DNA of 46,056 bases from Bradymonadaceae bacterium (GTDB lineage: Bacteria; Myxococcota_A; Bradymonadia; Bradymonadales; Bradymonadaceae), in NCBI GenBank assembly GCA_041601915.1, contig JBFIHF010000012.1, positions 1 to 46,056 on the forward strand, in the 5' to 3' direction. Both the position numbers and the translations under genes were made by a program. Below, in pieces: positions 130 through 44,400 of the stretch (its first letter is position 1; each line of letters begins with the position of its first letter). The notes beneath the pieces were generated by a model that was not told the origin of the DNA, ran no database searches, and saw only the letters and a program-made list of their open reading frames with translations.

Positions 130-530
130 CGCGGCGGTATTACTGGAGATGCACGTCCGTCGGACCGTGCGCGTTCTCGGCCGGACCGTGCGCGTTCTCG
201 GCCGTGCGGGAGATGCACGTCCGTCGGACCGTGCGCGTTCTCGGCCGGGACCGTGCGCGTTCTCGGCCGTGCGCGTTCTCGGCCGTGCGCGTTCTCGGCC
301 GGACCGTGCGCGTTCTCGGCCGGACCGTGCGCGTTCTCGGCTCGGACCGTGCGCGTTCTCGGCTGCTCGCGATCTACTTCCGTCGGTCGGTGCGGTCGGG
401 GGTGCCCCGGTGCGTTCGGGGGTGCCGGTCGCGGTGCGCGTTTCGAGGGGCGCGTGCGAACGTGGACCTGGTGGCGGCTGCGATCGCGGCGCCGCTGCTC
501 GCGATCTACTTCCGTCGGTCGGTGTCGCCG
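130..530. repeat. Complex tandem-repeat array, non-coding. About 9 copies of a GTGCGCGTTCTCGGCC core, mostly as a 21-nt unit GGACCGTGCGCGTTCTCGGCC (~155-365). There are 2 copies of a 37-nt GAGATGCACGTCCGTCGGACCGTGCGCGTTCTCGGCC unit, and 2 copies of the 31-nt GCTGCTCGCGATCTACTTCCGTCGGTCGGTG at 362-392 and 494-524.
   Basis: Direct reading of the sequence shows head-to-tail repeats with no intervening unique spacers. The array lies in the 3' flank of the minus-strand pspA gene, which ends at 556. Confidence 0.85.
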
Positions 531-555: not shown

Positions 556-1319
556 CTACTGGAATTTCTTCTTGAGGTCGGCGAGGTCGTCGTCGCCTTT
601 CTTCTTGCGCTCGAGCTTGTCGAAGATGTCCTCGAGTTGTCGGCGGCGCGGGTCGATGAGGGGGTCGTCATCGGCGAGGTCGTGCATCGCCTCGATGTCG
701 GCCTCCATGGCATTGATCTTTGACGACATGCGGTCGAACTCATCGAACGACCGGCGGGCGCCGAAGTCATCGACCATGTCGTCCAAGGGGTCCAGATGCT
801 GGGGTGATCTTGGGCGGTCGCGGTCGGGGCGGTGCTTGTCTTCGCCCATTCGGCGCCGCATCTCGGCGTCCCACGCGGACTCGTCGCGGGAAGCGTGCGA
901 CGTGGTGTGGGTGCCGTCCTGCGACGTCAGGCGTCCGCGGGCCCCCTCGAGCTTCATCTGCAGGGCTTCGAGGGCGCGTTCGATGTCCTGGATCTGGGCG
1001 CGGTAGTCATCGAGTTGATCGCGCAGACGCGCGGCCTGGTCCAGCGACTTGTTCTTCATGACGAGCGCCTCGCGGGCGAGTTCCTCGTCGCCGGCCTGCA
1101 GCGCCATCACGGCGCGGTCCTCCCAGCGGTTGGCGGTATCGCGCACCTCTCGAACCTGCTTGATGAGGCTGGCCTCGGACTGTCGGAGCTTGGCCTTCTG
1201 GAGCCGCGCGTCGCGCAAGGAGCTCTCCATGTCGGTCATCGCGTTCTTGAACGAGGAACCACGGCCGAGGTCGTTGAGTTCGCTTCGAATGAGAAGATTA
1301 AGCCGATCGAGAATGCTCA
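556..1319 (-). CDS. pspA: PspA/IM30 (Vipp1) family membrane-stress protein, ~254 aa with an acidic/basic C-terminal tail.
   Basis: The translation MSILDRLNLLIRSELNDL...AVMALQAGDEELAREALVMKNK matches the PspA coiled-coil family (compare E. coli [22 protein letters not shown]). The ATG at 1317-1319 overlaps the stop of the upstream gene (ATGA). The ORF track gives a longer N-terminal extension (to 1905) that is not supported. Confidence 0.85.
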
Positions 1320-2417
1320 TGGTTCGTCGCCGAAAAGGTTCAGGTTTTGGCCGGTGTTGGGCGATGGGCCGCGCGCGATGCCGGGTCCGATGAGATCTTG
1401 CGCAGTGGTCGGCGTTTCGACTTCCCAGCCCGCGGAGTTGGCGCCGCGGAACAAGATCCTGCCGCCGAGTCGTCGTCGGAAGTCGGTCCATGACTCGGGC
1501 GCTGCGGCGGACGTCGTCTCCCCTCGCTCCGCCGACAACATGTTCATCCGGCTGTCGATCATGTCGATCTGATGCAGCAGCAGCGCCTCCGGTGTCATCG
1601 GCTTGATGGGCGAGCCGTACTCCAACTCGCCGTGGTGAGACAGGACGAGGTGCTTGAGGTGCATCTGCAGATCGTCGGAAATGGGCGATTTCGCGCGCGC
1701 CGCAACACGGCCGACGTGTTCGGCGCCCATCGGAATGTGACCGACGAGTCGTCCCTGCGTGCTGTAGTCGAAGGCGCGGCGGTAACTCAGCTCCCAGACT
1801 TTGGCGAAGTCGTGGAGGACGACCCCGGCGAGCAAGAGATCGCGATTGATGAGGCCTGGATAGTAGGCGTCGTAGTGTTCGGCCAACCGCAGGGCGACTC
1901 CGCACATGGATAACACGTGTTCGATGAGCCCCCCCAGGTACGCATGGTGGTTGCTCATCGCGGCCGGTGCGGTCCGGAACTGCCGGGCCGTTTCCTCGTC
2001 CTCAAACAGCGCATCAAGGAAGGCGCGGATCTGTTCGCTTTCGACGTGCTCGCTGAGCAGGTCGCGCAGTTGGGCCCACAATGTCGCCGTCTCCCACCGC
2101 GACGTCGGGAAGTAGTCCGCGAGATCAACGGCATCGTCGGCGAGACGATCGAGATCCGCGACGTCGAGCTGCAGCGCATCGCCGTAACGTGTGACCTCAC
2201 CGCGCAACGCGACGAAATCATCGACTTCCAGGCGCGCCCCCAGAGCTTCGGGATCGGTCCACGCGCGTCCCTCGATGCGGCCGGAGCGATCCGCGAGCGT
2301 GAGTCGCAGGTACAACTCGCCGGTTCGCGACGGACGGATCGCCTTGTCCAAGACGAGGAACGTGCTCTGGACGAGATCTCCTTCGCTCAGCGCATCGACG
2401 TAGACCTTTTCACTCAT
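1317..2417 (-). CDS. OB-fold + HD-domain phosphohydrolase, a YhaM-like 3'-5' exonuclease family protein.
   Basis: There is an N-terminal OB-fold (MSEKVYVDAL...) and HD-domain motifs (NHHAYLGGLIEHVLSM, VLHDFAKV, LVLSHHG). The architecture is the same as B. subtilis YhaM. The gene is translationally coupled to pspA by an ATGA overlap. Confidence 0.75.
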   Translation of the reverse strand: MSEKVYVDALSEGDLVQSTFLVLDKAIRPSRTGELYLRLTLADRSGRIEGRAWTDPEALGARLEVDDFVALRGEVTRYGDALQLDVADLDRLADDAVDLADYFPTSRWETATLWAQLRDLLSEHVESEQIRAFLDALFEDEETARQFRTAPAAMSNHHAYLGGLIEHVLSMCGVALRLAEHYDAYYPGLINRDLLLAGVVLHDFAKVWELSYRRAFDYSTQGRLVGHIPMGAEHVGRVAARAKSPISDDLQMHLKHLVLSHHGELEYGSPIKPMTPEALLLHQIDMIDSRMNMLSAERGETTSAAAPESWTDFRRRLGGRILFRGANSAGWEVETPTTAQDLIGPGIARGPSPNTGQNLNLFGDEP

Positions 2418-2539
2418 GCGGGGAGCGTACCCAGCGTGTGCGATGGTGTCGAGCGGGAGGGCGGTCAGAAGCGACTGGAGGGAATCGGCACGACGGCGGT
2501 CGCGGTTCCAACGTTGAAATGCGCGCAACCCGTGGCACA

Positions 2540-4501
2540 ATGATGACGCCTCTCGCCTTCGGTACCCAACTCGATACTGTGTCTGACGACGTCGACCATA
2601 AGTTGTCCCACGACACGCCGACCTTGAGGTCGCTCGTGACGCCCGGCGACGAGGCGATCGGCGGGGACGATTCGCCCGATGCGCTGGTGATCAAGGTCTG
2701 CCGATCGTGCACGCGGTCCGCGCCCGACGACGCGGACTTTTGCCCGGAGTGCGGCGGCGACCTCGTCTCGATTCGGCGTGTCCCGGACATGTATCTGGAA
2801 GAGGTGATCGGCGGGAAGTACCGCATCGTCGAGAAGGTGGGCCAGGGCGGCATGGGTGTCGTGTACCTGGCGCGCAACGACGAGCTCGGCCAGAAAGTCG
2901 CGGTGAAGTTCCTGTCGCAGAAGTTCGCCGACGACGAGAATCTCGTCCTGCGGTTTCTCAACGAGGCGAAGAGTTACTGCCGGGTCAATCACCCCAACGC
3001 GGTGACCCTGCTCGACTACGGTCAACATGGTGACGGCGGGCCGCTGTTCATCATCACCGAGTTCATCGAAGGCAAGAACGTCACGGAGACGCTCAAGGAT
3101 CGCGGGCCGCTGCCGGCGGACACGGTGCTCGACCTCGGGTCGCAGATCGCCGAGGTGCTCTCCGCGGCGCACAGTCAGGGGGTGATCCACCGCGATCTGA
3201 AGCCCGACAACATCATGTTGATGCCGCTTTCGCGGGGCCGCTACGCGGTCAAGGTGCTCGATTTCGGGATCGCGAAGATCGTCGACGAAGAGGAGGGACC
3301 CAACACGGAGACCGGTTCGGTGTTCGGCACGCCGGAGTTCATGTCGCCCGAACAGGCCCGTGGCGACGAGGCCGACGGGCGATCGGACATCTACGCGCTG
3401 GGCGTGATCCTGTTCTACATGATCACCGGCAAGCTCCCGTTTCGGGGCAAGAACAAGCTGGTCGTGCTGAACATGCAGCTCAATGACCCGCCGCCGCGGC
3501 CGCGGGAAGTGCTGCCGACCACCGATCTGTCGGCCCGATTCGAGACGGTGATCATGAAGTGCCTCAACAAGGGGCCGAATCAGCGCTACGCGTCGGCCGA
3601 TGACCTGCTGGAGGCGTTTGAGGAGCTACGCGTGCCCAGCGGCAGCGCGACCTCGCGCGTGGGGACCGTGCGTGAAACCGCCGCCACACCTCGGCTGCTC
3701 GATAGCGCGGAGGGCCACTGGGAGGAGATTCACTCCCACGGTGAGACGCTTGCTTCCCTGGAGAACTCGGTCGTCGAGTGGGAAGTCGAGTCGATCGAGA
3801 TGGGTCGCCAGCACGACACGGGGCGAGCCCCGCCGCCCGATCGTGGCCCGGGAGCGGTGTCGATTGCGGTGTTGATCGTGGCGGTACTCGCCGTGGCGGC
3901 GCTGTTGTGGCTGGCGCTGGCCGATGATGCGCCTCCGGCCTCGCCCACCCCCAACGAGGCCGTTGAAGACGATCGCACGGAGCAGGTCGATGCCTCGCAC
4001 CGGGACGCGGTGATCGGGATCGTGCGCCGACTGATCGAAGACGGGAAGCTCGAGGACGCGCGCACGACCTATGACTACTCGCCCGTGAGCGATTCGGAGG
4101 CGCGCAAGACGTTGAACCGCGAGCTCACAGCGCTGGAGCGGGTCGGCCGCGATCTCGATGCCGCAATCGCCGCGAAAGATTGCGGGAAGGCCGCGGGGAT
4201 TGCCGCGAGCGTGGCGACCAAGGGTGTTCGCCTCAAGTTCGGCGAGCGTGTCACCGCGTGTCAGGCCGCGGTGAACCCGGTCGTTGCGCCGGCGCCGGCG
4301 CCAGACAAGCAGCCCGTGGTCGAACAACCTCCGGTTCCCGTGGTCCGCCCCAATCCTCAACCCAAACAGGATCCGAAGCCCACACCAGAGCTCGATCCAG
4401 AGCCGGATCCGCCCGTCGTCGAGGCTGAGACCAGCCCGAAACCTGCCAGCGAGAGCGTGCCCGACGACATGACGCTGCCGCCAAAAACACTCGACGATTA
4501 G
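2540..4501 (+). CDS. Membrane-spanning Ser/Thr protein kinase. It has an N-terminal Zn-ribbon, the kinase domain, one TM helix and an extracytoplasmic domain with a Pro-rich tail.
   Basis: The kinase motifs are canonical: GQGGMGVVY, VAVK, HRDLKPDNIM, DFGIAKI and APE-like SPEQ. The N-terminal Zn-ribbon is CRSCTRS...CPECGG. The TM segment is AVSIAVLIVAVLAVAALLWLALA. The start could instead be the in-frame ATG at 2516. Confidence 0.85.
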   Translation: MMTPLAFGTQLDTVSDDVDHKLSHDTPTLRSLVTPGDEAIGGDDSPDALVIKVCRSCTRSAPDDADFCPECGGDLVSIRRVPDMYLEEVIGGKYRIVEKVGQGGMGVVYLARNDELGQKVAVKFLSQKFADDENLVLRFLNEAKSYCRVNHPNAVTLLDYGQHGDGGPLFIITEFIEGKNVTETLKDRGPLPADTVLDLGSQIAEVLSAAHSQGVIHRDLKPDNIMLMPLSRGRYAVKVLDFGIAKIVDEEEGPNTETGSVFGTPEFMSPEQARGDEADGRSDIYALGVILFYMITGKLPFRGKNKLVVLNMQLNDPPPRPREVLPTTDLSARFETVIMKCLNKGPNQRYASADDLLEAFEELRVPSGSATSRVGTVRETAATPRLLDSAEGHWEEIHSHGETLASLENSVVEWEVESIEMGRQHDTGRAPPPDRGPGAVSIAVLIVAVLAVAALLWLALADDAPPASPTPNEAVEDDRTEQVDASHRDAVIGIVRRLIEDGKLEDARTTYDYSPVSDSEARKTLNRELTALERVGRDLDAAIAAKDCGKAAGIAASVATKGVRLKFGERVTACQAAVNPVVAPAPAPDKQPVVEQPPVPVVRPNPQPKQDPKPTPELDPEPDPPVVEAETSPKPASESVPDDMTLPPKTLDD

Positions 4502-4536: not shown

Positions 4537-4865
4537 ATCCGCTGGTCTGCTCAATAATCCCCTATCCGCCGGTCCGCCGGTCCGCCGGTCCGCCGGTCCG
4601 CCGGTCCGCCGGTCCGCCGGTCCGCCGGTCCGCCGGTCCGCTGGTCTGCTGGTCGCCGGTCAAATTCAAACTAAGACCCACACTCGGTTCATGGAGCCAC
4701 CACGCGAAGCGTCGGAGCAACCTCGAGCCTGCTGGTGAACCGCGGCCTCGCCCGTGGAGCGCGAGTGCCTCGTGCGCTTCGCGTGGTGGTTCTGTAGTTG
4801 GTGCGTGGGTCTTAGTTTGAAATTGACCAGCAGACCAGCAGACCAGCGGACCAGCGGAGCGGAAC
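4537..4865. repeat. Long palindromic (hairpin) repeat element, copy A. Arms start GTTCCGCTGGTCTGCTGGTC...GGTCAAATTCAAACTAAGACCCAC and the inner stem is CCACCACGCGAAGCG/CGCTTCGCGTGGTGG. The left arm carries an expanded (CCGGTCCG)n octamer tract.
   Basis: Reverse-complementing the right arm (4801-4865) reproduces the left arm (4628-4683) almost base-for-base. A second copy of the same architecture is at 41207-41419. Confidence 0.8.
4562..4641. repeat. Octamer microsatellite (CCGGTCCG), about 9-10 units, embedded in the left arm of palindromic element A.
   Basis: Perfect tandem units are visible in the sequence. Copy B of the element has only 3 units of the related GCTGGTCT motif, so the tract appears expanded here. 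Confidence 0.9.
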
Positions 4866-4983: not shown

Positions 4984-5487
4984 TCAGCGCAACACGATGA
5001 CGGTTTTCGCGAGCGCGCTCTGCCCGTACCCGCGGCTGAACACCATCAAGTACTTTCGGTTCGGCGCGAACTTGGATCCGAGCTCGGCGTGCCCATTGAG
5101 GATCTTCTCCGTGCGATCGGAAGGGTAGAAGGTGAAGGTGTCCACCAACTGCTGGGTGCCAGGATTCGTGACGTCGTAGAACGAAATCGCGGCCTGCAAG
5201 GACGCCACCGGCTTGGGCAGGAACGCCATGTACTCGAACTCCCACTTTCCCGATTCGTTGGCGGTGATCTCGTGGGTGTTGACGCTCTTCATGTGCTTGT
5301 ACATCTCATCGTCGCTGCCGAAGCGCGACGGGAAGCGTTTGGTGCTCACCACGATATCGCCGTTCAGCCTCGAAATCCCGCCCTTGGCCGACGCGGGGGA
5401 GCTGATGAGGACGAAGCTCAAGGTGAGCAACAGGCTGATCATGGTGGAAAAGGCGCGATTTTTCTGCAGCTGACGAGTTCGCAACAC
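4984..5487 (-). CDS. Small secreted protein of unknown function, 167 aa, with a predicted signal peptide.
   Basis: A GTG start at 5487 is preceded by AGGAG with a 6-nt spacer. The N-terminus has a positively charged n-region plus MISLLLTLSFVLISSPASA. No recognisable domain was found. The GC content is visibly lower than in neighbouring genes. Confidence 0.6.
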   Translation of the reverse strand: MLRTRQLQKNRAFSTMISLLLTLSFVLISSPASAKGGISRLNGDIVVSTKRFPSRFGSDDEMYKHMKSVNTHEITANESGKWEFEYMAFLPKPVASLQAAISFYDVTNPGTQQLVDTFTFYPSDRTEKILNGHAELGSKFAPNRKYLMVFSRGYGQSALAKTVIVLR

Positions 5488-5732
5488 GACGATCTCCTGG
5501 TGGGCGGTTCAGTGTGACGGCGCTGGCCGGAATGAGTATACGGGGCTGAGTCCCGAATTCTCAACCCAGACCGTGAGCTCTTTGGTGACGGCCGGTTCAG
5601 ACGGGCATGTTGGCGGCAAATTCAGTAGGATCTCATGTCCATTTGCGATGTTCGGGCGGTTGCGCGGTGCCCGGTGATCTGATAGTCAACCAACCGCTTC
5701 GCCGCGAGGTTCGGCGCCCTGAGGAGAACGGC

Positions 5733-7841
5733 GTGCTCTGTCATCAGTGTGGAAGTCCGGTCGACACGCGGGAAGGGGCGTGTGCGAATTGCGGTGCCGA
5801 ACTGAAGGGCGCGCGCCGCCTGAAGCTCACCGAGTCTCGGGGTCTGCGAATTTCGCAGGAGTTGAAGGCGATTCGACTCGAGGCGCAGCTGTTTCCGCCC
5901 GGCGAGGAAGTCGCGAAACGCTTCGTGCTCGGCGAAATGTTGGGCAAGGGTCCCTTCGGCGAAGTGTATCGGGCGCGCGATACCGCGATCGACGCCGAAG
6001 TAGCGGTCAAGATCTTCGCTGCCGAAGTGCTGAAGACCCCGCTGGACGAAGAGCGTTTTCTGCAAGCGACGCGGGCCGGTCGGCGGCTGACGCAGCAGAA
6101 CGTGGTGCGCCTTCACGACTCCGGCGTGCACAAGAGCCACCCCTGGGTGTCGATGCAGTTGCTCGAAGGATTGAGCCTGCGCAAAGTGCTCGACCTTCGA
6201 AAGTCGAAGAATGAGACGTTCACCCTCGCGGAGCTCGAGCCGGTGGTCACGCAGGTGACCCTGGCGCTTCAGCACGTGTCTCGGGATTTCCCGCACGGCG
6301 ATCTGAAGCCAGAGAACATCGTGTTCCTGCCGGAACTGATCAAGATGACGGATTCGTTCCTCCTGGCGGCGTTGCCGGCCAAGGCGATCATCCCGCGTTT
6401 GCGGGAGAATCCGTATTTTGCGCCGGAACTCCACGCCGAGAAGACCGATCCCACGCCGCGCGCCGACGTCTACAGCGTGGGTGTGATCATCGGTGAGATG
6501 ATGTTCGGGCCGGACTACACCCCGGGTTCGCGCAGCGGTGGCGAGCTGGGCGGGGTCGACGCGTTGGTCAAACGTGCGACCGCGTTTGATCCATCGGAGC
6601 GGTATCCGTCGGTGGAAGCGTTGAGTGAAGATCTCGCGACGCTCATCGATACGGGAAGCCTGCTGGAGAAGGGAGCGACGGGTCCGGCCGCGTTCAAGCC
6701 ACCGCCGCCTCCACCGCGAAAGGCCACGCCCACGTTGCCACCGGCGCCGCCGCCAGGCCCGGCGCCATCGGAGGCCTCGGAGGCCGAGGAAGTCGCCACG
6801 GTCGAGTACAATCGTGATCTGGCGAAGAAGCTGCAGGACGACATCTTGACCCGCGAAGTTGGGCGTACGGTGCCGGCGGGGACGAGTCGGACCGTCACGG
6901 CGGCGGTGCCCAAGCCGTCGGGCCCGATCCCCGCTCCGCGCCCCGTGCAGAGCGATGCGAGCCTGAAGACGGGATTGATCGTAGGCGTCGTGGTGTCCCT
7001 CCTCGTGGCGGGGGGCGTCCTGCTGCGCCCCAGCGGCGATGTCGAGCACATCGGCGAGCCACCGGTCGAGATCGGCGAATCGCCGAAGCCCCCGACCCCG
7101 GCGCCGGTCGAACCGGTGGTCGTGGCCGATGCCCCGTCGGTCGAGACCACCGCGCAGGTCGCGTTGGACAAGGTGGGTGTGGCTCAAGGCGCGGCCGTGG
7201 CCGCGCTGATCCCGCCGGTCGAGGCGGTGGACCCCACGCCAGAGCAGACCAACGGCACGACGACTCCAGATGTCGTCGAGCCGGTGCCGGTGAAGCCGGT
7301 GAAGCCCGACGCCGTCAAGACGGTCGAGACGCCGACGAAAGTGGAGAAGCCGGTCGCGACGGGCACCGACTGCGCGGGTGGAATGAAGCTCGTGAAGTCG
7401 TCCAAGATCGGCAACTACTGCATCGACGCCTACGAGTACCCGGGAAGCGGCAGCGTGCCGAAGACGGGCGTCACGTGGTTCCAAGCCAAGAAGTCCTGCG
7501 AGAGCGCCGGCAAGCGCCTGTGCGAGCTCAAGGAGTGGCGCGCCGCCTGCGGGTCGAAGTACCCCTACGGCACGCGCCACAAGCCGGATGGCTGTAACAC
7601 GGCGGACGAAGACGGGTTCGAACGTTCCGCCGCCAAGTCGGGCGCGTTCAAAGACTGCCGCAGTCGCAGCGGGACCTACGACATGGTCGGCAACGCGCAC
7701 GAGTGGGTCGAAGAGCAGCGCATCGCCGGCGGCGGCTACGAGTCGGACGAAGACGTGGGGTCCTGCCGGTATTCGTCCCCGAAATCACCGGGCTCGTCGG
7801 CGGCGTACATTGGCTTCCGCTGCTGCGCCAGCCCCAACTAA
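5733..7841 (+). CDS. Ser/Thr-kinase-like transmembrane protein with an N-terminal Zn-ribbon and a C-terminal periplasmic FGE-sulfatase (SUMF1/formylglycine-generating-enzyme-like) domain. Its catalytic motifs are atypical.
   Basis: A GTG at 5733 is preceded by GAGGAG with a 6-nt spacer. The Zn-ribbon is CHQCGSP...CANCG. The Gly-loop is GKGPFGEVY and the lysine motif VAVKIF, but the catalytic loop is HGDLKPEN (not HRD) and TDSF replaces DFG. There is a Pro-rich linker and a TM segment LIVGVVVSLLVAGGVLL (~6970-7026). The last ~190 aa (...NYCIDAYEYP...GTYDMVGNAHEWV...FRCC) match the FGE-sulfatase fold. Confidence 0.8.
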   Translation: MLCHQCGSPVDTREGACANCGAELKGARRLKLTESRGLRISQELKAIRLEAQLFPPGEEVAKRFVLGEMLGKGPFGEVYRARDTAIDAEVAVKIFAAEVLKTPLDEERFLQATRAGRRLTQQNVVRLHDSGVHKSHPWVSMQLLEGLSLRKVLDLRKSKNETFTLAELEPVVTQVTLALQHVSRDFPHGDLKPENIVFLPELIKMTDSFLLAALPAKAIIPRLRENPYFAPELHAEKTDPTPRADVYSVGVIIGEMMFGPDYTPGSRSGGELGGVDALVKRATAFDPSERYPSVEALSEDLATLIDTGSLLEKGATGPAAFKPPPPPPRKATPTLPPAPPPGPAPSEASEAEEVATVEYNRDLAKKLQDDILTREVGRTVPAGTSRTVTAAVPKPSGPIPAPRPVQSDASLKTGLIVGVVVSLLVAGGVLLRPSGDVEHIGEPPVEIGESPKPPTPAPVEPVVVADAPSVETTAQVALDKVGVAQGAAVAALIPPVEAVDPTPEQTNGTTTPDVVEPVPVKPVKPDAVKTVETPTKVEKPVATGTDCAGGMKLVKSSKIGNYCIDAYEYPGSGSVPKTGVTWFQAKKSCESAGKRLCELKEWRAACGSKYPYGTRHKPDGCNTADEDGFERSAAKSGAFKDCRSRSGTYDMVGNAHEWVEEQRIAGGGYESDEDVGSCRYSSPKSPGSSAAYIGFRCCASPN

Positions 7842-20750: not shown

Positions 20751-23700
20751 ATGTCCAAAGACCAAGACAAGCGCCATAACATCGACCAGACGTCCCCCGA
20801 TCTCGGTCCTGCTTTCGAGCCGGACGGGACGTTCCTGGAGGACTGGTCGATGGCGGAAGACCTCGCGGAGGGCCGCGACGGCGGCTACGCCCCGACCCGC
20901 GATCCGTCTCCTCGCAATGTCGATGACGTGCATCGGTCGGCATGGATCGATCTGGACGAAGTCGCCGACGCGGCGAGTTCCGTAATCCTGGAGCTGCTCG
21001 ATGACGAGTTCCTGGAGATCAGCAGCGGCCGAGATTTCGGCGAGGGGACGATCGACGAACTTCAGCGTGTGATGTCGCAGCCGCTCGGTGAGGCGCCGGA
21101 GCCCGAGATCCCCCGAGTGGATACGCAGGAGATCGAGATTTTCGCCGACGACGAGTCGGCGGACCCGTTTGACGCGACCGGGATTCAGATCATCGACGTC
21201 GACACCGGGGAGGTGATGCCGACGCTGGACTCGGGCTTCCTGCTGATCGACGACAACGAGTCGTCGAAGCGGAACCTCGCGATGACGCTGGACGGCGTGT
21301 CCGCGCAGATCGACCTGCCACGGCCGTGGGGTGCGTATCTGGGTGAGCTTCGCGACGAGATCGTCGCGCAATCGGACCCGAGGACGCGCGCGGCGTACAT
21401 CTTCATCTTCGGTGAGCTCATCCGGACGCTGGGCGCCTCGACGTCGAGTCGCCCCCCCGACGTCGACATCTCCGCGATCGCGGGGACGATGACGCGCCCC
21501 GATCTGCTGGAGCGGCTGTCGGCGCAGTGGGCCTCTCCGCGGTCGAGCTTCTTCGAGCTGCTCGCTCGGCTGGAGCGGCTCGACGAGCCGGAGGAAGGGG
21601 CGGTCGCGACCGTCCGGCGCTCATCGATCGTGCGCGAGCGGTTGCTCGACGGGGGGCTCGATGACGCGACGCGTCTGCGACTGCGCGAGCTACTCACTCC
21701 GCCGGAGAGCTTTCACGCGCTGGTGGTCAAGGCCGTCGATGCCCATGCGGCGGGCGAAACCGCGGTGGCGATCGGGGCATGGGAGGGGCTGAGCCAGTAC
21801 ACCAAAGGCGAGCTCGCGACGGCGTGCATCGCGCTCACGGGATGGCTGCTGCAAGGGACCCGCGGTTTGCTCGAGGTGGGCAACGCCCAGCTCGATGTCG
21901 GCCGGAACTCGCGACCGCTGCTGCTGATGATGCAGCGCGAAGCGGTGCGCTTTGCGGACCGGCTTCAGGAGGCGCGCGTGCTCAAGCGCCTGGTCGGCCT
22001 CGATGTGCACCTCGGCAAGCGGCTGCCCGACGAGGCCGGGGCCCGGTCGCGGCTCAAGGCTGAAACGGCCGCGCGCCTGTTCCGGTTGTCCACGATCATC
22101 GAGGGGATCTCCGAGACCGAGATCGCGAGCTCCGACGTCGCGGGCATGACGAGCTACTCGGTGCTGCTGGACGCGATTTCGCTGAGCGCGAAGAACCCGT
22201 TGTTTCTGCGGCGGCTCGAGGTGCAGGCGCGGCGGCGCGGCGACCAGGCGATGCTGGAGAAGGCGCTGATCTCGTTGGCGGCGGTCGTTGGCGAACCCCA
22301 CGTGCGCGCCGTGATTTGGGAGCGCATCGCCGATCTTGCGCGCCGCAGCGGCGCATCGCCGGAGATCGTCCGCGATCACCTGGAGCGGTCGTTGGACGCC
22401 GCCCCGGACTGTCTGCCGGCCTTGATCTCGATGGGACAACATCTCATCCGGACCGGCAGCTTCGAAGCGATGGTCAACCTGCGCGGCGGTCCGTCCACGG
22501 AGGAGTCGGCGGACCTGAACCTCGCGTGGCGCCGGGCGGAGCTGCTGGAACGCACCGGCGGCGACCCGGTCGAGATTCTGTCGCTGTATCGCGACGCGCG
22601 CGATGATCATCCGGCCAGCGTGCACTTGTTCTTCTGCGTCGAGCGCGCGTTGGCGCGGCTTGCCGACTGGCGCGGGCTGCGGACGTTGTACGAATCGGCG
22701 GTCGCGCCGGACAGTGGGCTCGCGGAGAACTTGCGGGCCAGTCGATTCAACGCCGAGCAGTACCGACTGGCGGTCGAGGCGTTCCTTGAGGACGCGTCCG
22801 GTGACCTGTCCGACGCGATGGTCCGGCACCTCGATCGGCCCGGCACCGCGACGGCGCAGGACGACACCGACGAACTTCGCATCGATCAAAACGTGCTCTG
22901 GCGCGTCGTCGCCGAAGAGATCGACCAGGACCCGGGGCGCACGCTGGGTCGACTCGAGGTGCTGCTGCAGACCTCGCGCGGCAAGTCGCCTGCGTGGCGA
23001 CTGCGCGCGCTGATCTGGTATGCGCACCTCGTCGAGGATGTGATGGGGGAGGCCGAGCGCGCGCTGCCCGCCTATCGTGAGGTCTTCGATCGCGCGCAGG
23101 GTGGCTTCCTGCGCCGGTGGGCGGTCCGCGGACTGCTGCGGACCGGCGACGCATCGTGGGTCGCGGAGCATCTCGCCGAGGGCGGGGGCCCCGCGTGGGT
23201 GGACCGCGACGGCGACCACGTCAGCTTCCGGCGCCGCATGGCCGCGGAGTTGATGGGGATGTCGGCCGATGCGGGCCAGGCGCTGGACATCCTCGAGGAG
23301 ATCGAGACGGACGACGATGTCGCGCTGGCCGAGCTCGCGGAGCGCGCCACCGTGCTGGCGATCCGGTCTCGGCAATGGGTTCGCGCGATCCCGTGGATGT
23401 TTCGCTGCTACCCCGAGCACTCTCGCGGCGCGCTCGCCGAGATTGCGCGCCACTTCGGTGCGGCGTTCGACGACGCCGATGAGGCCCTGCGCTACATCGA
23501 CGCGGCGCAGACGCGCACTCCGTTGGACCCCTATGTCATCTTGTGCGAACTGGAGCTCGCGTACCGCGCGCGGGATTGGGGGCGCGCGCTGGACCTGATT
23601 CAGGACGGACTCGGCACCATTGCGGCGGGCTCGATCGACTTTCGGGCGTTCTTGCTCGAGCAGGCGATCCTCGTGGCAGAGTGGGGCGAGCGCAGCGACG

Positions 23701-26700
23701 AACGCGCCCTGACGTTCCTCGAAGATCTGTGGAGCTTGCAGGCGACGGTGGGGTCGTCCCCGATTTTCGGCGCGGCGGCGTTCCTGCGCACCTACGCGCG
23801 CATGAAGCGCGGAGCCGAGCTGTCCGAGCACACCGAATACGTGCGCGCGAACTTCACGCCGTCGGTTGCCGAAGCGCTGCTCGGCGAGTCGCTCGTCTAC
23901 GAGGAGGCGTCGTCGGGAGCGGAAGCCGGGGCGTGGTACACGTCGCGCCTCGACAGCGTGCCGACCCCGCTGATCCCGTACTACCGGTTCATGGCGGCCG
24001 TGGTCGGCTGGATGTTCGGCGATCGCGACCGCACGGCGGTCCAAGACCTCGCCGACGCCACCGCGGCGAGTGACCCGACCCATCGCGTGGGCCCGTTTCT
24101 GTTGGCGATCGCGTATCGGCACGCCGACATGTACGCGTCGTGCGAGCGCCAACTGACGGCGCTGCGCACCCCGGGCCACAGCCGGCCGGTGCAGGACTGG
24201 GTGCTGGTGCGCCAACTGTTCCATCTGGCGGTGACACAGAACCAGACGCAAGAAGCGTTGGAGATGCTTCGTCAGGACGAGGCGTTCGGGCAGTTCGCCT
24301 GGTATTCGATCGCCGAGGAACTCTTCGCGCGAGCGCTGCGCGATCCGAGCGTGGTACCGGCGCTGGCCGAGCGCGCGAAGACGTCCGCCGGATCGCGGAA
24401 CCTGCATCTCGAGATCGCGGAGATTACCGGGGACCGCGAAGCGCTCGTCGCGCTGGCCGAGGACGAACTCCCCGAAGCGGTCGGCCAGGCGGAGATGCTC
24501 GCGGCACAAGGCGTCGCGGTATCGTTGCCGCGTTGGGACATCACCGACCGGCACGCCGCGCTGCTCACCAGCATCCGGGAGTCGTCGGCCGACGTCGCCG
24601 AACAGGTGGTCGACTATTTCAGCGACGTCGACGAAGAGCTGTTGGGCTCGCCGTGGTGTCCGCTTCGCGCCGTGAACGGGGATCTGCACCGGTTCGGTTT
24701 GAGCCGTGCGCAGCAGGACGCGTTGAGGCGACGCTGCGGCGAGTTCTCCGAGGTGGAGATGGGTGCGGAGGCGCGCCTGGTCTTGGCCCGGCAGCTACTG
24801 CGGTCTGGTCGGCGCGATGATGCGACGGCCTTGATGCCGCAGGGGCCAAGCTGGCACCTCGTCTCGGTCGCATGGTCGCTGTTCAACTTCGCCGTCGATC
24901 CGTTCAACCGAGATGCGAAGACGACGCACTGGGTGCTCGACCTGTGGGATCGCCGTCAAGGGATGTCTCGGAGCACCCTCGATTCGGAACTCGAGTACGA
25001 GATCGGGCGGTACCTGGAGCTCGTCGGCCAGCACGGCGAGGCGATCGACGCGATGCGCCGCGCGCTGAAGTCGTCCCCGCGGTTTCTGCCGGCGCAGGTC
25101 GCGGCGGGCCGGATGCTGATCGTCGCCGAGGACTGGCACGGCCTCGCCTCGCTGTGGGAAGCGGAGATGGAGTTCACCGAGGACGTGCAGGCGCTGGCGA
25201 GCGTCGCGTTCCGGCTCGGGTATCTGTGGGAACGCCGACTTCACGATCTTCCCGACGCGCGCCGCCACGCCGAGGACGCGTATCGACGCGTCTTGCGCGT
25301 GCGTCCGAACCACTTCCCTACGCTGCACGCGTTGCTGGGGATGGCGTATGACGCCCAGGACTGGGCCGCGGCCGCCGAACACCTCGAGGCGATCGCGACC
25401 TCGTGTCCGGATGCCGCGCTGCGCTCGTCGTATCTGTGCGAGCTCGCCGCCACGCGGGAGACGCATCTGGAGGACCTGCCGGGCGCGTGTGCCGCGTACC
25501 GCGGGGCGTTCCAGATCAGCCCGGAGTCCGTCGACGCGTTGTTTGGCGTGTTGCGCACCGACACGGACTCCCACGTCACCGTCGACGTGATTCGCGCGCG
25601 GCTGCGCCACGGCGTGACGCAGCGTGAGTTGCGCGAGCTCTGTCACCATTTGTTTGCCGCGACGCGCACCGACGCCGCGGCGGACGACCTGCTGTCCGAT
25701 GCGATGCCGACTCACTATGCGTGGCTGACCTCGAAGCTCATCCGCGGTGCGGAGGCCGGCAAGTTCGACGAGTCCGCGGCGGAGGCACTCAGCGACCATT
25801 ACGGCGAGGAGCCGACGCGGTTCATGATCGAGGCGTTCCGGCGCCGGATGGAGCCGCAGACCGTCGCAGGGATGAACAACCTCGTCGAGCTGTCACGTGG
25901 AATTGGCACGCATCCGCTCGCCGAGGGCCAGCTCGTGCGATGCATGCACTACGCGCGGCGGACAGGTGACCTCGAGGCGCTCGGCACTCTGGCGGGCGTG
26001 CGCGCACGCCGTTCGGCGACCGAGTTGGTACGTGCTGCGGAGCTGACGTGGCTCGCGGTGACGCTGATGCTGCGCGAGGAATGGGACGACGCACTGGAGA
26101 TCACCCAGCAGCTCCTCGAACAGGTGCCCAACTTTCTGCCCGCCGTGAAGACGGCGAAATACGCCGCGGACGTCGCCCAGGACTGGGAAGCGGTGGTGCG
26201 CTGGTTCGAGGCGGACGCGGTGCTGACGCTGGTGCCTGAGATCGCGTCTCGCGATCGGCTGTACGCATCCGAAGTCCAGCAACGCCACCTCGGTGACTTC
26301 GACGCCGCGCTCACTCAGCTGCGCACGGTGCTGCTGTCCAAGCCGACGCACCCCGAAGCGTTCACGAAGCTTCGCGACATCCTGCTCACGAAGCGCCAGT
26401 ATGTCGAACTACTGGAGGCCTACGAAAGTCGTGTCGCGCACACGACGTCCGAAGAGGAGCGGTCGGAGCTGCTCAACCAGATGGGCGATATCGCGCTCAA
26501 TCACGTGCGCGATCGGCCGCTGTCGATCGGGTTCTACAGCCGCTCCCTCGAGTTGCGACCGCGTCAACTCCGCCGGTTGCGCGTGCTGTCCGAGCTCTAC
26601 GAGGCCGAGCAGCGCTGGGACCGCGCGGTGGTGTGTCATCGCGCCTCCGCGGAGCTCATCGGCGATACGATCGTGCTCGGACGTCTGTGGTGCCACATCG

Positions 26701-28052
26701 GGATGTTGTACGAGACGAAGCTGCTCGACCTGAAGAAGGCCAAGAACGCGTACGCGCAGGCGCTCAAGATCGACTCGGACGCCACCGAAGTGCTGCTCGC
26801 GCTGGCGCGGGTGTGCGAGCGCCTCGAAGACTACGCGGACGCGGCGGCGCTGCAGAGCAAGGTCGTGATGATCTCCCGGGACGCCAAAGTGCTGCTCGAT
26901 GCTCGCATCGGCATCGCGCGACTGCAGCAGCGCCTCGGGGCGTCGCCGGCCGAGGTGCTGGGCGCGATCCGGAACGTCCTGTTGCACCACCCCGGCCACG
27001 GGCCGTCGATCGACGCGGCGAAGAAGGCGCTCGCCCGCACCGGGCTCCCGGGCGACACCGAAGACTTCTTCCAGGACCTGTCGCACGCGATCATCACGCA
27101 GCACGGGGCGGCGGCGTTGCCGTCGACTTACGAGATGGCGATGAATCTGGGTCACCGCGACCGCGCCTACTGCATCGCGTCGATCGCCCGCGAGCTCAAC
27201 GTGGCGTCGCCCCCGATGCAACAGATTCTGCAGGAGCTGTCGACGCAGCGCCGCTGGCCGGTGCGACCGCTGCCGCCGGAATTGACGGGGGCGGTGCTCC
27301 CCGAAGGGCTCGTCGCCCCGTTCGTCGAGCTGCTGCGCCGCAGCCGTGACGCGATCTTCGAGGGGATGGACTCGATGCCCGCCCAGCAGATGGTCAAGAA
27401 GGGGAGCCGACTGCGCGAGCCAAAGAACAAGGCGACGCAGCTGGCGTTCCAGTGGCCGGGCTTGTTTGGCCTCGAGCTGCGTGACGTCCACACGCTCAAA
27501 GGCGTCCCGGGCGGCTGTGCGGTGCACTTTGATGGCGGCGTGCGACTCGTCCTCGACGAGCGCTGGCTGGAGGTCAAGGAGCCCACGGCGCTGCTCGTCT
27601 CGCTGGGCGAACACCTCGCGGCGTGGTCGATGGGCATTGGTCCGTGGGCGTTGTTGGACCCCGACGCCCAGCAGTCGCTCTTCATCGCGATCGTCTCGAA
27701 CTACGTGCGCGGCTGGGCTCACGCGGAGCGAGCCCATCTGCCGAAGACGATCGTCTACCCACGGATCCAGCGCTGGCTGGAGCGCAAGGGCCAGAAAGTG
27801 GCGCCGTATGCGCTCGAGATCTCCGGTCGCTTTGGTGCCGCCGCGATTCGTCAGCAATTCGAGCTGTTGCACGAAGCGGAGAAACGCCTCGCATGCCTGT
27901 TGATCGACGACCCCGGCAGTGCGCTCAACGCGACGGGGCTCTTGCGCAAACCGCAAGCGGGCGAGCGGCCGGCGTGGCTGTTCATGCTCGGCGCGCCGGC
28001 CGCCCGGTTGCGCAAGGCCGTCGGGGTCACGGTGGGTGAGCCCCGGGCGTGA
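20751..28052 (+). CDS. Giant (2433 aa) cytoplasmic TPR-rich all-helical protein with an acidic disordered N-terminus.
   Basis: A single ORF uninterrupted over 7.3 kb. The N-terminal ~200 aa are D/E-rich. There are multiple TPR-like units, e.g. ...FRLGYLWERRLHDLPDARRHAEDAYRRVLRVRPNHFPTLHALLGMAYDAQDW... and ...IGMLYETKLLDLKKAKNAYAQALKIDSDATEVLLALARVCERLEDYADAA.... No signal peptide is present. Confidence 0.75.
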   Translation: MSKDQDKRHNIDQTSPDLGPAFEPDGTFLEDWSMAEDLAEGRDGGYAPTRDPSPRNVDDVHRSAWIDLDEVADAASSVILELLDDEFLEISSGRDFGEGTIDELQRVMSQPLGEAPEPEIPRVDTQEIEIFADDESADPFDATGIQIIDVDTGEVMPTLDSGFLLIDDNESSKRNLAMTLDGVSAQIDLPRPWGAYLGELRDEIVAQSDPRTRAAYIFIFGELIRTLGASTSSRPPDVDISAIAGTMTRPDLLERLSAQWASPRSSFFELLARLERLDEPEEGAVATVRRSSIVRERLLDGGLDDATRLRLRELLTPPESFHALVVKAVDAHAAGETAVAIGAWEGLSQYTKGELATACIALTGWLLQGTRGLLEVGNAQLDVGRNSRPLLLMMQREAVRFADRLQEARVLKRLVGLDVHLGKRLPDEAGARSRLKAETAARLFRLSTIIEGISETEIASSDVAGMTSYSVLLDAISLSAKNPLFLRRLEVQARRRGDQAMLEKALISLAAVVGEPHVRAVIWERIADLARRSGASPEIVRDHLERSLDAAPDCLPALISMGQHLIRTGSFEAMVNLRGGPSTEESADLNLAWRRAELLERTGGDPVEILSLYRDARDDHPASVHLFFCVERALARLADWRGLRTLYESAVAPDSGLAENLRASRFNAEQYRLAVEAFLEDASGDLSDAMVRHLDRPGTATAQDDTDELRIDQNVLWRVVAEEIDQDPGRTLGRLEVLLQTSRGKSPAWRLRALIWYAHLVEDVMGEAERALPAYREVFDRAQGGFLRRWAVRGLLRTGDASWVAEHLAEGGGPAWVDRDGDHVSFRRRMAAELMGMSADAGQALDILEEIETDDDVALAELAERATVLAIRSRQWVRAIPWMFRCYPEHSRGALAEIARHFGAAFDDADEALRYIDAAQTRTPLDPYVILCELELAYRARDWGRALDLIQDGLGTIAAGSIDFRAFLLEQAILVAEWGERSDERALTFLEDLWSLQATVGSSPIFGAAAFLRTYARMKRGAELSEHTEYVRANFTPSVAEALLGESLVYEEASSGAEAGAWYTSRLDSVPTPLIPYYRFMAAVVGWMFGDRDRTAVQDLADATAASDPTHRVGPFLLAIAYRHADMYASCERQLTALRTPGHSRPVQDWVLVRQLFHLAVTQNQTQEALEMLRQDEAFGQFAWYSIAEELFARALRDPSVVPALAERAKTSAGSRNLHLEIAEITGDREALVALAEDELPEAVGQAEMLAAQGVAVSLPRWDITDRHAALLTSIRESSADVAEQVVDYFSDVDEELLGSPWCPLRAVNGDLHRFGLSRAQQDALRRRCGEFSEVEMGAEARLVLARQLLRSGRRDDATALMPQGPSWHLVSVAWSLFNFAVDPFNRDAKTTHWVLDLWDRRQGMSRSTLDSELEYEIGRYLELVGQHGEAIDAMRRALKSSPRFLPAQVAAGRMLIVAEDWHGLASLWEAEMEFTEDVQALASVAFRLGYLWERRLHDLPDARRHAEDAYRRVLRVRPNHFPTLHALLGMAYDAQDWAAAAEHLEAIATSCPDAALRSSYLCELAATRETHLEDLPGACAAYRGAFQISPESVDALFGVLRTDTDSHVTVDVIRARLRHGVTQRELRELCHHLFAATRTDAAADDLLSDAMPTHYAWLTSKLIRGAEAGKFDESAAEALSDHYGEEPTRFMIEAFRRRMEPQTVAGMNNLVELSRGIGTHPLAEGQLVRCMHYARRTGDLEALGTLAGVRARRSATELVRAAELTWLAVTLMLREEWDDALEITQQLLEQVPNFLPAVKTAKYAADVAQDWEAVVRWFEADAVLTLVPEIASRDRLYASEVQQRHLGDFDAALTQLRTVLLSKPTHPEAFTKLRDILLTKRQYVELLEAYESRVAHTTSEEERSELLNQMGDIALNHVRDRPLSIGFYSRSLELRPRQLRRLRVLSELYEAEQRWDRAVVCHRASAELIGDTIVLGRLWCHIGMLYETKLLDLKKAKNAYAQALKIDSDATEVLLALARVCERLEDYADAAALQSKVVMISRDAKVLLDARIGIARLQQRLGASPAEVLGAIRNVLLHHPGHGPSIDAAKKALARTGLPGDTEDFFQDLSHAIITQHGAAALPSTYEMAMNLGHRDRAYCIASIARELNVASPPMQQILQELSTQRRWPVRPLPPELTGAVLPEGLVAPFVELLRRSRDAIFEGMDSMPAQQMVKKGSRLREPKNKATQLAFQWPGLFGLELRDVHTLKGVPGGCAVHFDGGVRLVLDERWLEVKEPTALLVSLGEHLAAWSMGIGPWALLDPDAQQSLFIAIVSNYVRGWAHAERAHLPKTIVYPRIQRWLERKGQKVAPYALEISGRFGAAAIRQQFELLHEAEKRLACLLIDDPGSALNATGLLRKPQAGERPAWLFMLGAPAARLRKAVGVTVGEPRA

Positions 28053-41206: not shown

Positions 41207-41419
41207 GTTCCGCTGGTCTGCTGGTCTGCTGGTCTGCTGGTCAACCTCAAACTCAAACTGGAGCCGCGCTCAAACCCCGGAGCCACCACGCGAAGCGCCA
41301 AGCCCAGCCGTGGAGACGAGCTGCTCGACGCGTCGCGTGGTGGCATTCCGGCCGTAGTGCGGGTCCAGTTTGAGTTTGAAGTTGACCAGCAGACCAGCAG
41401 ACCCGCGGACCAGCGGAAC
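41207..41419. repeat. Long palindromic (hairpin) repeat element, copy B. It has the same termini (GTTCCGCTGGTCTGCTGGTC...) and inner core (GGAGCCACCACGCGAAGCG...CGCGTGGTGG) as copy A.
   Basis: The left arm at 41207-41270 and the reverse complement of 41355-41419 are near-identical. It lies between the convergent ogt and kinase genes. Confidence 0.8.
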
Positions 41420-41430
41420 AGAACGGCCCG

Positions 41431-44400
41431 CTAGTTCTCGATCAGGAGCTGCGCGACGTTGAGGATCTTGCGGTTCAAGGGCTTTGCCAGGTAGGTCCGG
41501 CGCAGCTCCTCGTCGTTGATCTTGTCGCGTCGATGGATGACCACCTCGCGAGCCCGTGTGATCGCCTGGCGGCGCTCGTCTTCGAACTCCGGGCCGTCCG
41601 GCAAGATCTGGGTATGGTGGTAGAGAATGTCCTCCAGCGAGAACACCTCACCCTCGTTGACCAACTCCAGCGCGAGGTTCGAGTGTTCGATGGCGCGCTC
41701 GCGTTTGCCCAGAATCTTGTGCGCGCGCGCCATGAGGCTGTGCGCGTACCCCATACCCCACTTCATGTCCGCTTGCTCGGAGCGCTCCAGCGCATCCTCG
41801 GCCTGCATCAGCGCGATGCGCGCGGTGTCGGTCGTCGCGGCGGCCAGATGGACCTGGGCGAGCTGGAGCGTGGCGTGAACGGACAGGTAGACGTTGGGGA
41901 TCGAGTCCGCGAGCCGTAGCCCTTCATGCAGCGACGACTCCGCCTTCTTGTGATCGCCTTCCTCGATGTGCAGCGAGCCCATCGAGATGAGACCGTCGGC
42001 GAGGTTCTGAATCGAGCCGCCGCGGCGCGCGAGGTAGATGCCGCGGCGCACCGATGTCTGCGCCTTGTCGTACTCGCCGCGCAGCAGATGGCAGTGACCG
42101 ATGTTGACGAGCAGCGTCGCCTCTTCCCCGCGATGGCCGAGCTGGCGGACGCGGGTCAGCGCGTCCTCGTAGCGGGCGAGCGCTTCGGAGAATTCGCCGA
42201 GGTAGGCGAGGGCGAGGCCGGCGTTGTTGAGCAGGTAGCGACGCCACTTTCGCAGGTCGAGTGATTCGGCGTACCCGAGCGCGTCCTGGTAGGCCTGCAG
42301 CGCCTCGTGATGGCGCCCGGCCTGGCGGTGCGTGATGCCGATCAGATTAAGCGCTCGCACGAGGCCCTCGGACCCCGCCGGGCCGTCTTGCGTGAACGTC
42401 TCGACGGCGCGTCGCCCAAGCTCGATCGCCTCGTCGCGTTTTCCCTCGTTCAGGAAGATCATCGCCTCCACGAGCGAGGCATGCGCGAGGTTCCCCGCGT
42501 CATCGTTGGCTTTGGCGATGTCGCGAGCGCGATGGGAGTACTCGCGCGCGCGCCGCAATTGCGATTGTTCGAACGCGAAGCGCGCCTGCTGGATCAGCGT
42601 ATCTGCTTGCTCACGCGCATCGCCGCGCTCGGTGGCGAGTCGTTCGAGCTCATCGAGCGCGGCGCGGCATTCGTCGCGCTGGCCCAGTTCGCCCAATGCG
42701 CGCGCGCGGATCTTGAGCGCTTCGTAGTGGAACTCGTCGCCCGGCGCCACGCGCTCGAGGACCTTGTCGATCAGGCGCAGCGACTCCGCCGCGCCGTACT
42801 GCTCCAGCGCGTCATCGGCGGCCTGAAAATAGAACGCCACGGAGCGATCCTTCTCGCCCGCGCCGTCGAAGTGACGCGCGATCAGAGCAGACCGGCTATG
42901 GGTGCCGCTCGCGTTCTCCAGCAGGTGGTCGGCGAGGCGGCGATGCAGCATCGCGGCCTCTTCGGGCAGCAGCCCGGCGGCTGCGACGTCCTGCGTCAGC
43001 GCGTTACAGAACGCAAACTCACGGGAGTGCGGCGCCGTCTGGTTCGGATCGAACGTGTCCACCTGCATGCCGTCGGTGCGATCGATGCGTTCGAGCAGCC
43101 CGAGCGTCACCAACTCCGCTAGCTCGATGAAAGGCTCGTCGGGCAGCACGAGACCCAGATCGGCGCCTTTGAACGGCGACCACAGGAACGCGACGCGCTG
43201 CAGTACGACCTTGAGGTGCAGCGGCAGCCGGTCGATGCGCCCGCCGATCAGCCCTTCGACGCTGGATGGCAACCACTGCGGCGCCTTCGTGCGATCCTTG
43301 AGCGAGCGCCGCTCACCGGTGTCACCCTTGAGCATCCCGCGGTCGCGCAGAACCTCGACGACCTCCTTGATGTATAGCGGGTTGCCGCCGGCGCGGCGCA
43401 GGATCTCGGTGGCGAACGAGTCGTCCTGAATGCGGTGCAGCCGCAGCAGATCGAGGACCAGCGCCGCGCTCTCCTGCTCCCCGAGCTCGTTGAGCCGCTC
43501 CACCGTGACGTGCTTGGCTTCGAGCAACGCCTCCCAGTGCGGCTCGCCGGCGTGGCCCGCGGTGTCGTCCGCGGTAAACAGCACCATCGCCGGGGCGGGG
43601 CGCGACGTGGAGAAGAACTGCGTAATGAACTGCAGCGTCATCGTGTCGATGTGGTGCGCATCGTCGAGGGCCAGGATCATCGGCTTCTTCTCGGCGAAGC
43701 GCGTCAGCACCTTCTGCAGCGACAGGAATATGCGGTCGCGCCGCTCGTCGCCCCCGAAGTCGTCGAGCGCCGCATCCGGCCACTTGATGTGGAACAGCGC
43801 GCCGAGGCTCTGCAACAACAGCGTGCGTTCGGCGTCGTCCTCCTCGGGAAACAGCGCCGAGACGCGCGTCATCAGCGTCGACCGTACGAGGCGCAGGTCG
43901 TCGCGATGTTCGAGCCGCAGGATGTCGGCGAGGAAGGTCGCCATCGAACTCAGCGGGACGTCGCGGTGATGCACGCCGACGACGCCACGCACGATCCGCA
44001 CGTTGCGCTGATCGAGGCCGCGCAAGAACTCCTCTACCAGCGTCGACTTTCCAATCCCCTGGCGGCCGACCACGAGCACCATCTGCGCGGTCTGCCCAAG
44101 GATCGTCTCGCGGTAGGTCTCGCGTAGCAGCTTCAGCGGGATCTCGCGGCCGTGAAACCGACTGTAGCTGCGCCGAAGCTCGACCAGCGCGTCTTCGCCG
44201 CTCTTGGGGCCGGTGAGCAGGTAGGCCTGCACCGCCTGGGAGTGGTCATCGTCGGGGTGCTCGACGCGATCGACGGTCTCGGCGTCGTAACGCCTGCGGA
44301 TCCGCCGGTAGACCTGCCCGCCGATCAGGACTTCGCGCGCCATCCCTGCGTGGGCGAGCCGCTCCGCGAGCTCGTTGCCACTGCCGAAGAACGACCACGA

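Follow-up and report, generated by a model that had tools for sequence, protein, structure and literature searches.

A YhaM-family nuclease gene next to a divergent pspA paralogue: a clade-specific gene pair in Bradymonadales-type genomes

INTRODUCTION

In Escherichia coli, PspA binds and inhibits the hexameric PspF until membrane stress releases PspF. Other gene contexts of the PspA family have been described, among them the CesT/Tir-PspA dyad of yjfJ-type PspA contexts (Ravi et al. 2024, PMC11237479). YhaM of Bacillus subtilis is a metal-dependent hexameric 3'-5' exonuclease, described in a recent study as a 3'-deoxyribonuclease specific for single-stranded DNA (ssDNA) that is LexA-regulated and needed for transformation, and an unidentified partner that controls disassembly of the hexamer has been postulated for it (PMC12107432). 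Here, we analyze a 46,056-nucleotide stretch of contig JBFIHF010000012.1 (the whole stretch is called the window below). It comes from an uncultured bacterium related to the Bradymonadales, which are predatory Myxococcota. The window encodes a protein with an HD domain and an OB fold (the HD/OB protein) directly upstream of a PspA paralogue (PspA1). An earlier note on this DNA, made from the letters alone, had proposed that the two genes are translationally coupled and that the pair could tie membrane-stress handling to RNA turnover or to the hydrolysis of nucleotide signals. We found that the pair recurs in related genomes and that its members belong to the YhaM and PspA/IM30 families.

RESULTS

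Distribution of the gene pair

The two genes are encoded on the same strand and share four nucleotides:

1317..2417, minus strand: YhaM-family OB+HD nuclease gene (HD/OB), 366 amino acids, stop included in the coordinates; ATG at 2417, TGA at 1319-1317
556..1320, minus strand: gene of the divergent PspA/IM30 paralogue PspA1 (pspA1), 254 amino acids, stop included in the coordinates; ATG at 1320-1318, stop at 558-556
1317..1320, minus strand: ATGA stop/start overlap of HD/OB and pspA1, read directly from the sequence

The closest named homologues of both proteins come from Lujinxingia, Persicimonas, and Bradymonadaceae (~50% identity), and both genes of L. litoralis carry adjacent locus tags (DL240_05620 and DL240_05615). 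Direct inspection identified HD/OB followed by pspA1 on one strand in 12 distinct Bradymonadales-type loci (the window, L001-L004, L081 from Persicimonas caeni, L082, L085, L089, L090/L111, L110, and L112). The pair thus recurs outside this genome, a check that the earlier note had asked for. When clusters of both proteins were compared by the size of their longest contig, 52 of the 90 best HD/OB clusters equaled one of the 120 best PspA1 clusters, compared to none for ranks 91-120.

Outside this clade the association was not found. No PspA was encoded within about 6 kb of HD/OB in any of 75 loci from Acidobacteriota, Planctomycetota, Desulfuromonadales, Desulfobulbales, and others. A hidden Markov model (HMM) of the PspA subfamily, run with HMMER filters off at E <= 10, gave no PspA match in 76 loci (L005-L080); its sensitivity is adequate, as it finds PspA2, a 27%-identical paralogue, at 1e-25. 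The nearest non-linked homologues of HD/OB, in L017 (a Bradymonadales metagenome-assembled genome), L108, and L109, likewise lack a PspA within about 6 kb. A metagenome contig of lower GC, L086, encodes a clear PspA1 orthologue that shares the motifs and the C-terminus but has no HD/OB within 3-5 kb, and in L084 pspA1 is inverted, so that the genes are adjacent but convergent with a gap of 128 nucleotides (nt). The two genes are therefore separable, with pspA1 inverted in L084, PspA1 lacking HD/OB nearby in L086, and HD/OB lacking PspA in L017, L108, and L109. This counts in part against the idea of the earlier note: the nuclease partner is an ordinary family member, found without PspA within about 6 kb in 75 + 3 loci, even though the pair itself is conserved.

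That such a partner is not a classical one for PspA was also borne out. The main text of two comparative-genomics surveys of the phage shock protein system (Ravi et al. 2024, PMC11237479; Popp et al. 2022) mentions no HD domain, OB-fold, nuclease, or exoribonuclease partner, and a literature search for PspA with YhaM returned no paper linking both, only false positives from pSpac vectors and papers on B. subtilis RNases. HD/OB-pspA1 is a clade-specific PspA gene context that is absent from the main text of the surveys checked. In L086 (3031-4901), pspA1 overlaps the gene of an NTP-transferase (mannose-1-P guanylyltransferase-like) by ATGA, and PspA with NTP-transferase may be the older pairing.

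The junction between the genes

The overlap described earlier was confirmed on the minus strand, where it spans 4 nt (ATGA, which reads 'tcat' on the plus strand at 1317-1320). An independent assembly of the same sequence (L107) gives identical 366- and 254-amino-acid gene calls and an identical overlap. This is the commonest overlap class among co-directional bacterial genes, so the overlap is real yet in itself unremarkable. The junction also measures -4 nt in L001, L110/L111, and L112; elsewhere it is +1 (L082), +2 (L003), +26 (L004), +52 (L085), or +75 nt (L081). Co-expression in this genome is very likely because the genes are co-directional and overlapping. Translational coupling is not conserved: the overlap is present in the window, but relatives differ, with junctions ranging from -4 to +75 nt, an inverted gene in L084, and no HD/OB in L086.

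A YhaM-type nuclease

Two domains were recognized in the HD/OB protein:

2142..2375, minus strand: N-terminal OB fold (amino acids 15-92); Pfam PF01336, beta strands and barrel in the AlphaFold 2 (AF2) model, Foldseek matches to SSB/RPA-type OB folds
1554..1925, minus strand: HD domain (amino acids 165-288) with its extended metal-binding motif intact in the alignment with homologues

The domain calls of the earlier note hold in profile searches for both genes (HD and OB here, PspA_IM30 in PspA1). The protein matches Pfam HD (2.8e-9) and the OB fold family tRNA_anti-codon (PF01336; 1e-6, 29 bits against a cutoff of 27, amino acids 28-89). Against the NCBIfam model for YhaM (PRK13480), it aligns over 279 of 314 profile positions (E 1.3e-53) with 182 bits against an equivalog cutoff of 460. 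A profile of the protein and its relatives identified the YhaM/Cbf1 structures 9h3f and 9o7t in the PDB (E 1.6e-76 and 2.7e-73). The AF2 model has a mean predicted local distance difference test score (pLDDT) of 94.9 and a predicted template modeling (TM) score of 0.90, and its HD domain superposes on the cryo-EM structure of YhaM (9h3f_A) in Foldseek with a target-normalized TM score of 0.88 and 32% identity. Residues H167, H202-D203, H261-H262, D285, and D288 are invariant across 94 homologues, and the ligand-bearing stretches align with Staphylococcus aureus YhaM/Cbf1. Equated by inspection, these residues appear to correspond to the metal ligands of B. subtilis YhaM (H163, H193, D194, H250, H251, and D274; PMC12107432). 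Judged by its full-length match (182 bits, below the equivalog cutoff), the HD/OB protein is classed as an ordinary YhaM-family member and a possible orthologue of the Firmicute enzyme.

The suggestion that the HD protein may hydrolyze (p)ppGpp or cyclic nucleotides did not find support. Its alignment with YhaM, which degrades ssDNA and RNA 3'-5' as a hexamer (PMC12107432), runs over the whole length. We rejected a second-messenger phosphodiesterase because collinearity with YhaM nucleases extends to the OB fold and because no HD-GYP or RelA/SpoT-type family scored for it in domain searches. Among defense-system models (PADLOC), no family matched the HD/OB protein.

The nuclease ends in a short motif within a flexible tail:

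1332..1346, minus strand: NLNLF motif (amino acids 358-362), part of a flexible C-terminal stretch of ~16 residues; alignment and AF2

The tail has a pLDDT of ~60, compared to >90 elsewhere in the model. An NLNLF-type motif is kept in every PspA-linked relative. It also occurs where PspA is not a neighbor, in homologues from Geobacter/Desulfuromonadales (NLDLF, NLELF) and Desulfobulbales (QQSLF, QQRLF) and in L010, L011, L017, and P0120. A pentapeptide of the form [N/T/S/Q]xxLF thus ends otherwise variable tails across several deltaproteobacterial orders, whether PspA is adjacent or not (C-termini compared: L001-L004, L010, L011, L017, L023, L032, L034, L037, L049, L069, L070, and L075). Acidobacterial homologues have another tail motif, [ST]LF[GA][ED]KLxxAL, and planctomycete homologues have none. 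Because homologues without a PspA neighbor have the motif too, the tail is probably not a PspA-specific docking site. It resembles the consensus of beta-clamp-binding proteins, QLxLF (PMC4549789), but has N rather than Q in the first position. The peptide may tether the nuclease to the beta sliding clamp, and a clamp-like tail together with the ssDNA activity of YhaM suggests a DNA-linked role for the nuclease.

PspA1

PspA1 matches Pfam PspA_IM30 (PF04012; 4.8e-19, 69.3 bits against a cutoff of 33.9) and falls below the NCBIfam equivalog cutoffs for PspA and LiaH. A PDB profile search returned Vipp1/PspA at about 2e-25. Its AF2 model (pLDDT of 80 overall and >90 in the hairpin) begins with helix a0 (residues 3-17) and a hairpin (21-137), which are followed by an additional helix (146-161), a disordered segment (162-187), and three helices toward the C-terminus. 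With this model as the Foldseek query, the top 16 PDB matches are Vipp1/PspA, the best being Vipp1 and PspA polymers, followed by Snf7. PspA1 is thus a divergent PspA/IM30 paralogue with a predicted Vipp1/PspA-like fold. In PADLOC, it gave only a sub-threshold coiled-coil match to LmuB (E 9.6e-4), with no defense-system membership.

Two nearly invariant motifs mark the subfamily. A WDAEMRRR helix (amino acids ~145-160; window ~841-888, minus strand) follows the hairpin, and the C-terminus carries DDDLADLKKKF, which loosely recalls ESCRT-III MIM-type tails:

559..594, minus strand: conserved C-terminal DDDLADLKKKFQ motif of PspA1 (amino acids 243-254), nearly invariant in 113 subfamily members

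Both WDAEMRRR and DDDLADLKKKF are candidate partner-binding sites.

Surrounding synteny

The pair lies in a block that is syntenic across the clade. About ten genes around the pair are shared. On the HD/OB side lie purQ, purS, and purB, a kinase that carries an FGE-sulfatase domain, the gene of a small secreted protein, and a zinc-ribbon kinase. Beyond PspA1, the block continues with a convergent Gly-rich lipoprotein, optional inserts, an NTP-transferase, PspA2, a CesT/Tir-like protein, and a cNMP-binding protein. Across the clade, PspA2 is 75-82% and purB ~70% identical. Inserts in the block include a 359-amino-acid gene between the kinase and HD/OB (L081/L089), an ABG transporter (L110-112), and an extra kinase (L004). 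Because housekeeping pur genes are syntenic too and the clade is not deeply diverged, the recurrence of the pair cannot be told apart from general retention of ancestral gene order and does not in itself show a functional link.

The window extends only 555 bp past pspA1, and PspA2 therefore lies outside it. In relatives, PspA2 is found with the NTP-transferase, the CesT/Tir-like protein, and the cNMP-binding protein 3-5 kb past pspA1 (L081 11734-15410, with equivalents in L085, L089, and L110-L112). The ~540-amino-acid convergent neighbor was considered as a membrane anchor for PspA and rejected; this Gly-rich lipoprotein matches no Pfam family and is absent from the window. The contig end just downstream of pspA1 holds ten copies of a 21-bp tandem repeat, CGGACCGTGCGCGTTCTCGGC, and a ~30-bp direct repeat, GCTGCTCGCGATCTACTTCCGTCGGTCGGTG (window 145-363, 361-392, and the 495-527 region). 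These repeats probably explain why the assembly stopped before the lipoprotein and PspA2 cluster of the relatives. Six unrelated metagenome contigs (L095, L097, L098, L099, L102, and L103) contain tandem arrays of two to three PspA paralogues, which are PspA2-like at 32-47% identity.

The divergent kinase

A kinase gene is transcribed away from the pair:

2579..4501, plus strand: Hanks-type Ser/Thr kinase with an N-terminal zinc ribbon, one transmembrane segment, and an extracytoplasmic C-terminal region; Pkinase 4.9e-49
2514..2541, plus strand: sigma-70-like promoter facing the kinase, TTGAAA-N16-CACAAT with a TG extension; scan and relatives
2418..2578, no strand: divergent intergenic region between HD/OB and the kinase, the expected site of the HD/OB-pspA1 promoter

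The kinase, previously placed at 2540-4501, is indeed membrane-spanning, divergent, and a conserved neighbor, but its start was moved to about 2579. The GTG at 2579 (MSDDVDHK…) is the more likely start because the ATG at 2540 falls in the -10 box, and the alignment of N-termini agrees. The promoter architecture (TTGAAA/TTGAAT/TTGATA/TTGCAA, N16, (C/A)ACAAT) is kept in at least six relatives (L001, L003, L004, L082, L110, and L112). A kinase orthologue is divergent to HD/OB in most loci of the clade. The same holds for L108, where PspA is missing, and in L017, also without PspA, the kinase is convergent. In PADLOC, the kinase matched generic Ser/Thr kinase models. No LexA-type or ECF (extracytoplasmic function)-type element was found by eye upstream of HD/OB.

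Next to the first kinase, a small secreted protein without a Pfam family is encoded at 4984-5487 (minus strand) and is present in most, not all, clade loci. The gene that follows (5607-7841, plus strand) joins a second Ser/Thr kinase to an FGE-sulfatase-type domain, and most clade loci whose flank is long enough have it too. Two very large open reading frames occupy 20751-28052 (plus strand, 2433 amino acids) and 41431-45837 (minus strand, 1468 amino acids); the latter includes a Ser/Thr-kinase-like region with a BLAST match to the kinases of the locus. Tandem arrays of 8-bp units are also found between genes, namely TCCGCCGG (12 copies), GACCAGCA (3.9 copies), and its complement GCTGGTCT (3.9 copies), at window positions 4565-4661, 4825-4855, and 41212-41242.

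DISCUSSION

Explanations for the pair

We consider a two-gene operon that is specific to this lineage and built from ordinary family members, with shared regulation rather than an obligate complex, somewhat more probable than its alternatives taken together (roughly 0.55). One mRNA, started within 2418-2513, would cover both genes, and ribosomes ending the nuclease gene at the overlapping TGA would restart on pspA1. The nuclease would trim single-stranded 3' ends as a ring hexamer, like B. subtilis YhaM, using its OB fold and a two-metal HD site. PspA1, a fast-evolving paralogue of ESCRT-III fold with a predicted amphipathic N-terminal helix, would bind to the stressed inner membrane and polymerize there. 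The adjacency of HD/OB and PspA1 would have been inherited with the rest of the conserved neighborhood.

Several observations weigh against this operon of ordinary members. No promoter or operator was identified for HD/OB-pspA1, and a 7-mer comparison of 13 orthologous upstream regions gave only the kinase promoter. Insertions never split HD/OB and pspA1, though they are found elsewhere in the block, which hints at selection for linkage. PspA1 and HD/OB also evolve faster (41-59% identity) than PspA2 and purB, which would fit co-evolution. These last two patterns favor a dedicated partnership, in which PspA1 regulates or scaffolds the hexameric nuclease at the membrane and membrane damage or DNA entry switches on or relocates the exonuclease. 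The stop/start overlap in four lineages points the same way, as do the subfamily motifs WDAEMRRR and DDDLADLKKKF, which could bind a partner, and the factor that the YhaM authors postulate to control hexamer disassembly (PMC12107432). Set against these are the convergent genes of L084, by which co-translation is not required, the bona fide PspA1 of L086, coupled to an NTP-transferase with no HD/OB nearby, the close HD/OB homologues without PspA (L017 and L108), and a nuclease C-terminal motif common to homologues without a PspA neighbor. We regard such a partnership, drawn by analogy with E. coli PspA and PspF, as unlikely. A narrower version, in which PspA1 would be an ESCRT-III-type partner that holds the YhaM-type hexamer inactive or at the inner membrane and releases or activates it upon membrane perturbation (e.g., prey contact or DNA entry), seems very unlikely. 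A functional HD/OB-PspA1 partnership is unproven; what speaks for a link in function is limited to the two genes lying side by side in a region that is syntenic overall, and exceptions occur in nature.

The earlier note had also suggested an envelope-stress unit centered on the kinase, which would sense an extracytoplasmic signal and control the HD/OB-pspA1 operon or phosphorylate its products. The kinase orthologue is the divergent neighbor in most clade loci, and it stays beside HD/OB where PspA is missing (divergent in L108 and convergent in L017). That persistence also counts against the idea, since a link between kinase and HD/OB that outlasts the link to PspA is no argument for a Psp-type response. 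The kinase owns a strongly conserved sigma-70-like promoter, no transcription factor is encoded in the unit, a 359-amino-acid gene separates the kinase from HD/OB in L081 and L089, and these genomes are very rich in Ser/Thr kinases, two others being encoded in the window. Such a unit appears quite unlikely. At the other extreme, the adjacency might be a neutral remnant of gene order, with the two genes expressed independently despite the overlap. Synteny of the whole region, housekeeping pur genes included, and tolerance of the L084 inversion and the L086 separation would be expected in that case. Junctions of -4 to +2 nt in six lineages, however, are too tight for a terminator and a promoter to fit in between, so that read-through transcription is hard to avoid, and we judge independent expression to be the least likely of these accounts, well below a shared operon.

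Significance

Were the link functional, a nucleic-acid enzyme would join the known partners of bacterial ESCRT-III/PspA proteins, and a mode of control would be suggested for YhaM-type ring nucleases, a question that their recent structural study did not settle. The narrower version would, if true, connect membrane state directly to the processing of single-stranded DNA or RNA 3' ends and supply the 'missing partner' of YhaM. On present evidence, the pair is a clade-specific arrangement of two well-known families, an aid to annotation in Bradymonadia and a modest lead rather than a discovery. The clamp-like tail of Gram-negative YhaM homologues points to a function on DNA rather than RNA, which perhaps makes it the by-product more open to testing.

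Comparison with known systems

The HD/OB protein has its two-domain architecture in common with YhaM/Cbf1 of B. subtilis and S. aureus (COG3481-type) over the full YhaM length and has the same extended set of metal ligands. Identity is ~30%, below the NCBI equivalog cutoff, and the protein bears an extra structured C-terminal extension of ~50 residues and the flexible NLNLF tail, both of which Firmicute YhaM lacks. B. subtilis yhaM is not known to adjoin a pspA. Its genomic context, with regulation by LexA (PMC12107432), differs from that of the HD/OB gene.

PspA1 has the amphipathic helix a0 and the long a1-a2/3 hairpin in common with PspA, Vipp1 (IM30), and LiaH of the ESCRT-III superfamily, which are without its inserted WDAEMRRR helix, its disordered linker, and its own C-terminal DDDLADLKKKF motif. 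In relatives of this genome, the known CesT/Tir-PspA dyad involves PspA2, which is 27% identical to PspA1, and not PspA1 itself. The partners of the classical Psp (PspF-ABC) and Lia (LiaIH-GFSR) systems are missing around the pair, where no PspB, PspC, PspF, LiaI, LiaF, or LiaRS occurs among the called genes and Pfam families (L081, L082, and L110-L112). A further parallel, by analogy only, is E. coli PspA-PspF, in which a PspA-family protein is likewise encoded beside an expected hexameric ring. PspF is an AAA+ sigma-54 activator, whereas the neighbor of PspA1 is a predicted nuclease.

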